A stretch of DNA of 64,000 bases from an uncultured bacterium (GTDB lineage Bacteria; Eisenbacteria; RBG-16-71-46; CAIMUX01), in assembly GCA_964473865.1 (NCBI GenBank), contig CAYYQN010000003.1:2545-66544 (forward strand), written 5' to 3'. The position numbers and the translations under genes were made by a program. The notes beneath the pieces were generated by a model. It was not told where the DNA came from, made no database searches, and saw nothing but the letters and a program-made list of their open reading frames with translations. How positions within the stretch are numbered: the first letter of the stretch is position 1; each line of letters begins with the position of its first letter. This document shows, piece by piece, positions 12,413-14,810 of the stretch.

Positions 12413-12626
12413 AAGCGATCGTTTGTATGGTATTGTTAAACTGCGGCATCAGGGGGAGCGGGTCCTGCCGTCGGGAAGTACCCGCGTGTCCCACTTCCAG
12501 CTCTGGTGCAAATCCAACTACACCTTCCTGGAGGGAGCCAGCCACCCGGAGGAGCTGGTCGAGGCCGGCATCGCGCTCGGGTTGCCGGGACTGGCGCCGA
12601 CCGATCGCGACGGCGTGTACGGCGTG
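12413..12626 (+). repeat. direct repeat copy 1 (dnaE2 leader/5' coding), partner at 14597-14810
   Basis: ~214 bp at ~88% identity by manual alignment. Both copies contain the tandem element ATCGTT-N8-AT(C/T)GTT (gATCGTTtgtatggtATCGTTa). Confidence 0.8.
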
Positions 12627-12674
12627 GCGGGGGACCAAACACCCGCCTGCTACCCATTCTGCGGAAGCGCATGA
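12413..12674 (+). pseudogene. truncated duplicate of the dnaE2 5' end (leader plus first ~65 codons), terminating after 17 unrelated codons
   Basis: 12413-12626 is ~88% identical to 14597-14810. It encodes ...[45 protein letters not shown], then diverges and stops at 12672-12674. Confidence 0.7.
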
Positions 12675-12710
12675 ACCACGGCACGACCGGCGCTCCGGTT
12701 CCGGGTGTAT

Positions 12711-13901
12711 CTATCGCCGGAGAATCACAGAACCACTCCGGCTCTTCCCCTCGGCCTCCAACCTCCAGTAGTACACGCCTCCAGGAACGCGCACCCCGTG
12801 ATCCGCGGTTCCATCCCACGACAGATCATGTGAGCCCGCCGAAAGCACCCCGTCGGCCAAGGCGGTCAGGCGGCGACCGTCACTGGAATAGACGGCCAAA
12901 CGAACGATCCCGGCTGTGGCCAAATCGAACCGCAGGGAGGTTCGGTCTGCGAAGGGGTTCGGGACGCACCGCAGCATCGCGGTCTCGGTGGAGAACGCAG
13001 CGGTTGCATCAGACGATGGAAGTTCCACGAAGGCAAGACCGGTCACGATGCCGAAGACATCCGGGAGGAAGTCGTGGACATCGGATCCGTCCAGGTTCAT
13101 GTACATGATCTTCTCGCGGTTGGTTTGAACGGACTGACCCCAGTAGACCCTTCCGGAACCAAGATCGAGGGTGATCCCATCCGGGTTCAGATTGGCGCCG
13201 ACCACGTAGAGATCCTCGACATCGGAGCCGTCGAAGTCCGCCCGACGCACAACATCGACGACGTAGTCGGTCCAGTAGACCTTCTGCGCCATGACGTCCA
13301 AGGCAATGCTGGAGGGACGGTCATGGCCGGTCACGACGAAGACGGGGCTGCTGCCATCGAGATTCGAACGCATGATGGCGCCGGTGGCATCGATGTAGGC
13401 CGTGGTGAAGTAGAGCTTGCTGTGAAGCATATCGAGGGCGATGCCGCTACCCACCGGGGCGGTCATCAGCGTGATGGCGCCGGAACCGTCGAGGTGGGCG
13501 AAGCCGATTCGCTCTCCGCTCAAATCCGCCCAGTAGAGCCTGTCCGTGTCGTGATCCAGCGTGATCCCATACGGAAAGAGCAGGTCGGTGGCGATAATCG
13601 TCTCGATGTTGCTGCCGTCCAGGTTCGAACGTCGGATGACGTGATCGCTCACGTCGGTCCAATAGAGCTTTCCGGCCACATCGTCAACGGCAATTCCGCG
13701 CAACCCTCCGCCGGTGTTCACCACGGTCTCGAGTCCGCTTCCGTCGGGAAACACGCGGTGGATCGCTCCGTCGCTGAACGACGGGTTGAACACCTCGCCG
13801 AAGTACAGCATGCGGTCGGTGCCGGCGGCCGGCGTGAAGAGTGCCCCAAGACCCAAGAGGCAGAGGAGAAGCGATCCCGCGAGTCTTCGGAACGTTGGCA
13901 T
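12711..13901 (-). CDS. secreted YWTD (LDL-receptor class B) beta-propeller protein with T9SS-type CTD
   Basis: A GGGAGGA RBS precedes MPTFRRLAGSLLLCLLGLGALFTPAAG (signal peptide). There are five or six repeats of the KLYWTD...NLDGS type. The CTD is VPNPFADRTSLRFDL...GRRLTAL...WDGTADHGVRVPGGVYYWRLEA. The listed ORF start at 14210 is an upstream extension. Confidence 0.75.
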   Translation of the reverse strand: MPTFRRLAGSLLLCLLGLGALFTPAAGTDRMLYFGEVFNPSFSDGAIHRVFPDGSGLETVVNTGGGLRGIAVDDVAGKLYWTDVSDHVIRRSNLDGSNIETIIATDLLFPYGITLDHDTDRLYWADLSGERIGFAHLDGSGAITLMTAPVGSGIALDMLHSKLYFTTAYIDATGAIMRSNLDGSSPVFVVTGHDRPSSIALDVMAQKVYWTDYVVDVVRRADFDGSDVEDLYVVGANLNPDGITLDLGSGRVYWGQSVQTNREKIMYMNLDGSDVHDFLPDVFGIVTGLAFVELPSSDATAAFSTETAMLRCVPNPFADRTSLRFDLATAGIVRLAVYSSDGRRLTALADGVLSAGSHDLSWDGTADHGVRVPGGVYYWRLEAEGKSRSGSVILRR

Positions 13902-14596
13902 CGGTCCATCCTCCCTGTGCACGGATCGGGAAGTCACCGTGCACGAGCACAAGGCGCTGTGCCGCAGGCGCGGCCGCCGACTCGAGGGGCTCAGACTCAC
14001 AGGAGGAAACAGCGCTCGGGGGACCGTTCGGATGGAGCGCCATGAGCAGGCAGCGCGCCGGTCTGTTTTCCGGTGGGGATCATACCACGGACTGGAAGTC
14101 GGGAGCCAGCGCTCCGGCTTCCCCGCCACATGGAGCACCCAGCCGTGCGGAAGTACAGCCCCTTCTTCTCCTGCGCACGGGCGCCATCCGGCATCGCGCA
14201 TGAATAACACCGCCGATCACGGGAAACACCCTCCTGTCACCGCGGTGCGGCGCCCGGGCGTCTTCCTGCGGATGCTTCTCGCGTGGCAGCCTCGGCCGAG
14301 GTGGTCTCTGCGAGACGTCGACGGCCGGACTGGGGGGTGACCTTCTTGCACCGTTTTCGGCCCGGCACCGAACCTGTGCCCGAACACGCGGTGCACCCTT
14401 CACGGACTTGCTGGGCTGTTGTCCTGAGATTCCAGCCACCCTGCTCTCCCCGCACATGGCGGCTTGTGGTCGAAAGGACTGCGGCGAGCGCGCGAGCGCG
14501 GGTGGAGACCGAGGTGCGCGAGGATCCTCCATTCCGAATTCCAGGTAGAACTTATTGCCCCACTTCAGGTTGACGACTTGCCTTATTTTCCGAAAT

Positions 14597-14810
14597 AAGC
14601 GATCGTTTGTATGGTATCGTTACGCTGCGGCATCAGGGGGAGCGGGTCATGCCGTCGAGGAGTATCCGCATGTCCTACTTCCCCCTCTGGTGCAAATCCA
14701 ACTACACCTTCCTGGAGGGAGCCAGCCACCCGGAGGAGCTGGTCGAGGCCGGCGTCGCGCTCGGGTTGCCGGGACTGGCGCTGACCGATCGCGATGGCGT
14801 GTACGGCGGG
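14597..14810 (+). repeat. direct repeat copy 2 (authentic dnaE2 leader and 5' end)
   Basis: See copy 1. The two copies are separated by 2,184 bp containing the minus-strand YWTD/CTD gene. Confidence 0.8.

Follow-up and report, generated by a model that had tools for sequence, protein, structure and literature searches.

The dnaE2 gene of an uncultured bacterium of the Eisenbacteria lineage (contig CAYYQN010000003.1) encodes an error-prone DNA polymerase and is preceded by a short conserved block that runs into a −10 hexamer. We analysed this block within a 64-kilobase (kb) stretch of the contig, hereafter the window, in which positions are counted from the first letter. Our comparison with related mutasome loci and with lexA genes of other phyla indicates that the element is probably a LexA operator of the GAAC-N4-GTTC class (the Cheo box), fused in fixed phase to the extended −10 of dnaE2. 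In operators of this class, a 4-bp spacer lies between two inverted half-sites of 4 bp each. The site overlaps the predicted core promoter of this damage-response gene, 35 nucleotides (nt) before the dnaE2 start. The features on which the argument turns are the following.

14599–14614, + strand: operator-like block GCGATCGTTTGTATGG, supported by position weight matrix (PWM), alignment and footprint
14612–14620, + strand: extended −10, TGgTATCGT (hexamer TATCGT at 14615–14620), adjoining the operator and partly shared with it, with its register kept in most relatives
14636–14642, + strand: Shine-Dalgarno sequence GGGGGAG, 6 nt ahead of the dnaE2 ATG, read from the sequence
14649–17975, + strand: dnaE2, error-prone DNA polymerase of 1108 amino acids, assigned by NF004225 and Pfam

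A conserved block joined to the −10 hexamer

The operator-like core of the window is composed of GATC (14601–14604), the spacer GTTT (14605–14608) and GTAT (14609–14612), followed by GG. The counterpart of 14599–14614 in relatives reads CGAAC-N4-GTAT-GG, with TATnnT directly after. For the footprint, each 12-mer of the 250 nt at 14399–14648 was compared with six related upstream regions, with 200 shuffles as background. The footprint rises above all 200 shuffles only at 14604–14619, its top-ranked 12-mers cover 14599–14620, and it peaks at 14606–14617 with a score of 10.33 out of 12 (highest shuffle, 9.33). Position by position, the matches among the six relatives are C5 G6 A5 T0 C6 g2 t4 t5 t5 G6 T6 a4 T6 G6 G5, then T5 A6 t4 c2 g0 T5. 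These counts resolve into two units, CGAnC-N4-GTaTGG and a TAnnnT −10 hexamer preceded by TG, the latter (14612–14613) being kept in all six relatives. The invariant columns of the alignment are GAnC-N4-GTnTG, and the flanks of the window and its relatives fail to align outside the block of about 21 bp.

We derived a PWM from five related sites, leaving out that of the window, and scanned about 128,000 positions in the 64 kb with it. The motif occurs twice, at dnaE2 and in a relic duplicate described below; both copies score 19.0 bits, and the next best position scores 11.7. A functionless chance similarity is hardly credible as an explanation. In its favour are the small size of the block and the deviation of the window site from the consensus of the lineage; against it, the footprint beats every shuffle, the score lies 7 bits above that of any other position, and the block stands in a consistent position before mutasome genes in seven loci.

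A simple sigma-70 scan of 13850–14750 found no −35 hexamer 16–18 bp upstream of the −10; the sequence TTGACG at 14570–14575 stands 39 bp off. The initial annotation of this DNA had offered a −35/−10 region as its fallback, of which the −10 is indeed within the element and the −35 is missing from the scan. An extended −10 is able to compensate for an absent −35, and because none is detectable, the dnaE2 promoter probably relies on its extended −10. The distance from operator to ATG is about 93–144 nt in relatives and only 35 nt in the window, so the dnaE2 leader is unusually short. A sigma-70 and terminator scan found nothing, and a search of 12200–14900 against Rfam gave no match, which leaves an RNA leader element unsupported. 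We rejected a promoter of the Bacteroidetes type, TTTG ... TAnnTTTG, as no TAnnTTTG follows the TTTG at 14606–14609. Immediately upstream of the operator lies an AT-rich inverted repeat, CTTATTT-TCCG-AAATAAG (14582–14599), which is present only at dnaE2 and falls outside the duplication. Placed roughly at the −35/UP position, it may serve as an UP-like element or as the site of a second regulator.

These observations also bear on a plain constitutive promoter, that is, an extended −10 with upstream context and no bound repressor, which we regard as quite unlikely. It would account for TGnTAnnnT being the best-conserved part of the block, where the footprint peaks, and for the degenerate left half-site of the window, and it fits the failure of both tblastn of the loci and a profile search to find a LexA gene in the lineage. 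It does not account for the invariant G, A and C (14601, 14602 and 14604), which lie 11–14 bp upstream of the −10, in a zone that sigma-70 does not contact base-specifically. At 9 bp from the −10, these bases are hence no −35, an element that the promoter lacks altogether in our scan, and the same positions form perfect palindromes before the lexA genes described below.

Related sites at mutasome and lexA genes

DnaE2 relatives in a genome-collection scan reached at most 67% identity to the window protein. A scan of metagenome contigs with the N-terminal 350 amino acids reached at most 62%, and its matches, with dnaE2 mostly directly after imuB, were uninformative for the promoter. A large protein collection yielded closer relatives at 64–85% identity, three of them labelled Candidatus Eisenbacteria (now Candidatus Eiseniibacteriota). 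Neighbourhoods rich in FlgD_ig and Por_Secre_tail are common to the window and the contigs of its relatives, in agreement with placement in Eisenbacteria. Each related locus, from DnaE2 relatives at 64–79% identity, has a single strong site before its first mutasome gene.

Window: CGATCGTTTGTATGGTATCGT, dnaE2 downstream
L082: CGAACATTTGTATGGTATCAT, dnaE2 downstream, TATCAT in the −10 register
L086: TGAACATTTGTATGGTATCCT, dnaE2 downstream, TATCCT in the −10 register
L088: CGAACGATTGTTTGCTATACT, dnaE2 downstream, TATACT in the −10 register
L171: CGTACGTTTGTGTGGTAATCT, dnaE2 downstream, TAATCT (TAnnnT) in the −10 register
L083: CGAACATTCGTATGGTATGCT, a RecA-fold imuA-like gene and then imuB downstream, TATGCT in the −10 register
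L089: CGAACAAATGTATGGCACT, imuB downstream, without a clear −10 hexamer

Since the block is common to three types of gene (dnaE2, imuA-like and imuB), it is more than an inherited promoter. In the relative P0007, dnaE2 is operonic behind imuB. The region upstream of dnaE2 in L083 has no operator-like site, the operator standing instead before the separate imuA-imuB pair; at 9540–9990, this region contains short tandem repeats (ccgctctcgta five times; cctccgaggc/gggc units) called as a 167-amino-acid open reading frame (ORF). Similar short tandem repeats occur around 2300–2386 in L085.

The same class of motif is found at lexA genes of other phyla. We located lexA genes beside more distant DnaE2 homologues by tblastn and examined 18 upstream regions, from phyla and groups that include Vicinamibacterales (Acidobacteriota), Latescibacteria, Hydrogenedentota, Fibrobacteraceae and Planctomycetota. 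These lexA genes are canonical, with LexA_DNA_bind and Peptidase_S24 Pfam domains, and head lexA-imuA-imuB-dnaE2 cassettes. All 18 carry a palindrome of the ACAGAC-AAAT-GTCTGT type, which occupies the spacer between −35 (TTGACA or TTGCAT) and −10 (TATnnT); in most of these promoters, the TATnnT after the palindrome is in the same phase as in the window. The 16-bp palindrome shared by this LexA clade of cassettes, ACAGACAAATGTCTGT, with ATAC/GTAC half-site variants, sits exactly between −35 and −10 (for example, L021 7086–7099, L005 355–368 and L003 2491–2503), and we found no description of it in the literature searched.

Several of these lexA sites resemble that of the window in detail. The palindrome ends in GTATG followed by the TAT of the −10 at 4 of the 18: the sites of L007 (AGACAAATGTATGGTAT) and L004 (ATTCAAATGTATGGTATTGT) end exactly in GTATGGTAT, as in the window, with which they share an identical 3′ part, TGTATGGTAT, and those of L009 and L010 end in GTATG(C/T)TAT. 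Two lexA genes have a window-like left half of the TC type (ATTC in L004 and AGTC in L041), which indicates that such sites are tolerated. The pattern RRACANNTGTMTG matches 17 of 169 loci; 16 of the matches lie at the edge of a cassette or have lexA, dnaE2 or imuB as the gene immediately downstream. The Latescibacteria chromosome L003 combines both situations in one genome: its lexA-imuA-imuB genes (2586–5940) have AGACAATTGTCTG at 2491, and AGACATTTGTCTG stands at 9950 before a solitary dnaE2, which is 4 kb away and separated by unrelated genes on the minus strand, a split architecture like that of the window with the motif at both lexA and dnaE2. Myxococcota relatives with a stand-alone dnaE2 carry palindromes of the CTGAACAnnnGTTCAGT type in the same place, which presumably match the myxobacterial LexA box.

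If LexA is the binder in the window organism, a LexA dimer at 14601–14612 would overlap the TG extension, abut the −10 (14612–14620) and thereby exclude RNA polymerase. DNA damage would lead to RecA-stimulated self-cleavage of LexA and free the dnaE2 promoter, and DnaE2 would then be made from a short-leader mRNA with a predicted start at about 14626–14628. The window site is probably a weaker operator, given its left half GATC in place of the lineage GAAC, and this A-to-T change suggests a leakier or earlier-induced dnaE2. The guess of the initial annotation that an SOS/LexA-type element precedes dnaE2 is the best-supported explanation of function; the direct-repeat architecture that it attached to this guess is unsupported, as set out below.

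Several observations weigh against assignment to LexA. The window sequence GATC-GTTT-GTAT keeps the outer G...T and the inner C-N4-G, yet it is a poor dyad, with agreement between GATC and GTAT at one of four dyad positions (the outer G), and the change from GAAC to GATC affects a position at which five of six relatives have A. The sites within the lineage are themselves asymmetric (GAAC versus GTAT). No in-lineage locus yielded a lexA gene in tblastn, and among the 120 cassette-type LexAs listed by the profile search none carried an Eisenbacteria label and none came from the P0008 or P0009 contigs; with no in-lineage lexA found, it is motif class and analogy across phyla that link LexA to this lineage. 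The 64 kb contain no further candidate site, including upstream of a uvrA-like gene.

Radical-SAM genes of the COG1533 family, which have been reported as members of the LexA regulon in several phyla (PMC4951493), give a further hint of LexA control within Eisenbacteria. Boxes of the form GTAC-AATC-GTTC or GTAA-TAAT-GTTC precede such genes in two Eisenbacteria metagenome-assembled genomes. The L171 gene (COG1533 / Rv2578c-PA0069 family, ‘splB’) has GGGTACAATCGTTCGC directly before an ATG, and at the L172 gene an ATG comes after CCGTAATAATGTTCGGC, with CCGAACGTTTTTTCGC as a second box 36 bp upstream. The scores of these boxes count against the LexA assignment, at 13.3 bits on the reverse strand in L171 and 12.2 and 11.7 bits in L172, as does the fact that the ATG at the L171 box and the called start are in different frames, which may reflect an assembly indel or a mis-called start. 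At L171 5626–5644 and L172 3121–3176, the GTAM-N4-GTTCG box holds a −10-like hexamer (TACAAT or AATAAT) 7 nt before the ATG, a layout that suggests a leaderless, operator-controlled transcript.

Absence of a detected lexA and the asymmetry of the in-lineage sites would also suit an operator of a different repressor, for example a phylum-specific helix-turn-helix or S24-family damage regulator, and non-canonical SOS repressors are known in Bacteroidetes (PMC8565304). We nevertheless judge such a repressor improbable: the half-sites and spacing are those of known LexA-box architecture, and near-identical sites stand before canonical lexA genes that are linked to those DnaE2 homologues which are closest beyond the lineage.

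Two further damage-related genes of the window were inspected beside the LexA question. The UvrA-like gene (25686–30830, − strand) is of double length, with 1714 amino acids, four ABC stretches and a match to TIGR00630 at 1430 bits, and also matches NF001885; its upstream region, 30831–31082, has no LexA-like (Cheo-like) box. A radical-SAM paralogue at 22425–23610 (− strand) is distantly related to Rv2578c/PA0069 (COG1533), with a score of 153 bits that is below the cut-off and 28% identity to the L171 gene. Its probable start, the ATG at 23610, is preceded by TATACT at 6 nt and looks leaderless, and no operator-like box was found upstream of it.

The duplicated promoter and the dnaE2 neighbourhood

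The second occurrence of the motif belongs to a relic, here copy 1, of the dnaE2 promoter region, copy 2.

12406–12633, + strand: relic duplicate of the dnaE2 promoter and about the first 56 codons, 91.7% identical to 14590–14817
12415–12436, + strand: relic operator (GCGATCGTTTGTATGG) and −10 (TATTGT), with the same PWM score of 19.0 bits as copy 2

The two segments form a direct duplication at an offset of 2184, with 209 of 228 positions identical, and identity falls to 62% upstream of about 12406. In copy 1, the start codon at 12465 reads CTG instead of ATG, and the homology extends to about 12633, short of a convergent gene on the minus strand. The motif strings singled out by the initial annotation are found as reported, ATCGTTTGTATGGTATTGTT at 12418–12437 and ATCGTTTGTATGGTATCGTT at 14602–14621, both on the + strand. 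Both lie in one 228-bp duplication and therefore amount to one observation, not two independent ones. A lone C>T change in the decaying copy had been read as a sign of protein-binding constraint. This argument fails, as the motif, identical at 19 of 20 positions, is kept no better than its surroundings. The operator copy at 12415–12436 is a by-product of the duplication that controls just a dead gene fragment.

The duplication, of about 230–260 bp (12374–12633 and 14558–14817), flanks a unique 1.9-kb segment. The gene in this segment, on the minus strand from 12711 to about 13900, encodes a secreted YWTD/SGL beta-propeller with a FlgD_ig tail, and the relic promoter is oriented antisense into it. 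In its layout, the region recalls a Campbell-type (single-crossover) integration in which the foreign DNA brought along a homeologous 5′ fragment of dnaE2. As a more doubtful possibility, the relic operator and promoter could still fire after damage, antisense into the convergent beta-propeller gene.

The motif had been described as ATCGTT repeated directly, 14 bp from centre to centre, with direct-repeat LexA boxes such as GTTC-N7-GTTC as a parallel; boxes of that type are found in Alphaproteobacteria, where LexA binds tandem half-sites. Copy 2 does contain an exact 6+6 repeat, and direct-repeat LexA boxes do exist (PMC4951493), but an operator of the form ATCGTT-N8-ATCGTT is very improbable here. 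The repeated hexamer is present in none of the seven related sites, the exact pattern ATCGTT-N8-ATYGTT has no match in 80 DnaE2 loci from the genome collection, and the repeat is already broken in the relic copy. The two hexamers also differ in conservation, with position-wise matches among the six relatives of A5 T0 C6 G2 T4 T5 for the first and A6 T4 C2 G0 T5 T1 for the second. The first comprises the last three bases of the degenerate left half-site (GATC; five relatives have GAAC) and three spacer bases, and the second comprises positions 2–6 of the −10 hexamer TATCGT and one further base. Hexamers that recur exactly 14 bp downstream are about as common as chance predicts, with 23 in the window versus 21.9 in shuffles (367 in the window for offsets 8–21 together); an expectation of 0 is valid only for the specific 12-base pattern and not for hexamer repeats generally. 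Allowing two mismatches to ATCGTT-N8-ATYGTT added only chance-level matches within genes of the window. Judged from these alignments, the tandem look of ATCGTT is an accident of one genome. The case carries a methodological lesson, in that a neat direct repeat in a single genome vanished once orthologous promoters were compared.

The identity of the downstream gene is clear. NCBIfam model NF004225 (‘error-prone DNA polymerase’) matches DnaE2 at 1303 bits (cut-off 939), above DnaE1 models, and the Pfam domains are PHP, DNA_pol3_alpha, finger, HHH_6 and OB. The end of ATCGTTTGTATGGTATCGTT lies 27 nt from the ATG at 14649. dnaE2 is solitary: its upstream neighbour, the beta-propeller gene, and the downstream TPM-domain genes are all on the minus strand. 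None of imuA, imuB, lexA and recA was found in the 64 kb, so the imuA-imuB-dnaE2 cassette arrangement is absent here. A split mutasome arrangement is also seen in L082, L083, L086, L088, L171 and L003. The genes dnaA, dnaN, gyrB and gyrA, at 43–55 kb, place the window near the replication origin. The gyrA ORF (46675–49422, − strand) contains a repetitive stretch rich in GAC/GAG at its 3′ end (46690–46806, − strand), which would presumably give GyrA an acidic C-terminal tail rich in Asp/Glu.

Wider reading and comparison with known systems

For annotation, the result is routine, as damage-inducibility of error-prone polymerase genes is expected anyway. What is mildly new is the lineage, together with a right half-site that is fused to the −10 in fixed form (GTATGG-TATnnT). 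We found no mention of LexA together with Eisenbacteria in the literature searched. If confirmed, the operator would give a first handle on the SOS regulon of the uncultured candidate phylum Eiseniibacteriota, and GAAC-N4-GTAT fused to a −10 would join the variants used for tracing the evolution of LexA motifs. A broader proposal, which we put forward as doubtful, is that Candidatus Eiseniibacteriota and the cassette-heading LexA clade of several phyla use an undescribed motif, RRAC-N4-GTMT, whose right half lies within the −10 region (GTATGG-TATnnT), and that the site has turned intrinsically asymmetric in this lineage (GAAC/GTAT, and GATC/GTAT in the window genome). If true, it would capture one moment in the drift of LexA motifs, with promoter constraints as the main reason why one half-site is kept.

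The core SOS regulon comprises lexA and recA together with imuA-imuB-dnaE2, and control of imuA-imuB-dnaE2 by LexA is established; the GAAC-N4-GTTC and direct-repeat GTTC-N7-GTTC classes of LexA motif are summarised in the same source, which places Cheo-box GAAC-N4-GTTC operators in Firmicutes, Actinobacteria and Gallionellales (PMC4951493). The window element most probably works like, and is, a LexA operator of the Cheo-box class, although dyad symmetry is weak at this site. Like the Cheo box, it has two 4-bp half-sites with a 4-bp gap and retains the outer G...C and inner C-N4-G positions, the in-lineage left half CGAAC is identical, and the site lies across the predicted core promoter of a gene for SOS mutagenesis. 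Unlike the Cheo box, it has an imperfect dyad, its right half being GTAT where the box has GTTC (some relatives show GTTT or GTGT), this right half is hard-wired to the −10 (GTAT-GG-TATnnT), and the left half in the window is GATC.

The lexA-imuA-imuB-dnaE2 arrangement is known as an adaptive mutagenesis cassette (Erill et al. 2006, cited in PMC4951493). The window site agrees with the lexA operators of such cassettes in spacing, in the ...AC-N4-GT... core, in the mutasome genes regulated and in its placement ahead of the −10, which for the cassette operators is between −35 and −10. Its 3′ end, TGTATGGTAT, is that of L004 and L007, and its TC-type left half recurs in L004 and L041. It differs from the cassette operators in that those are mostly perfect palindromes (ACAGACAAATGTCTGT, AGAC-N4-GTCT) before lexA itself, whereas the window has a degenerate dyad, no recognisable −35 and a dnaE2 that is split from imuA/imuB and lexA.

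The alphaproteobacterial GTTC-N7-GTTC box is a poorer parallel. The likeness is confined to a GTT-containing direct repeat before an SOS gene in copy 2; the repeat unit is another, its centres are 14 rather than 11 bp apart, and no relative keeps it. The Verrucomicrobia LexA motif TGTTC-N4-GAACA, validated by electrophoretic mobility shift assay (EMSA), controls imuA-imuB-dnaE2 and the COG1533 radical-SAM gene (splB) (PMC4951493). Its half-sites face the opposite way from those of the window site, and its binding is EMSA-validated whereas the window site is known from sequence; both, however, are lineage-specific variants of a 4-bp-spaced dyad.

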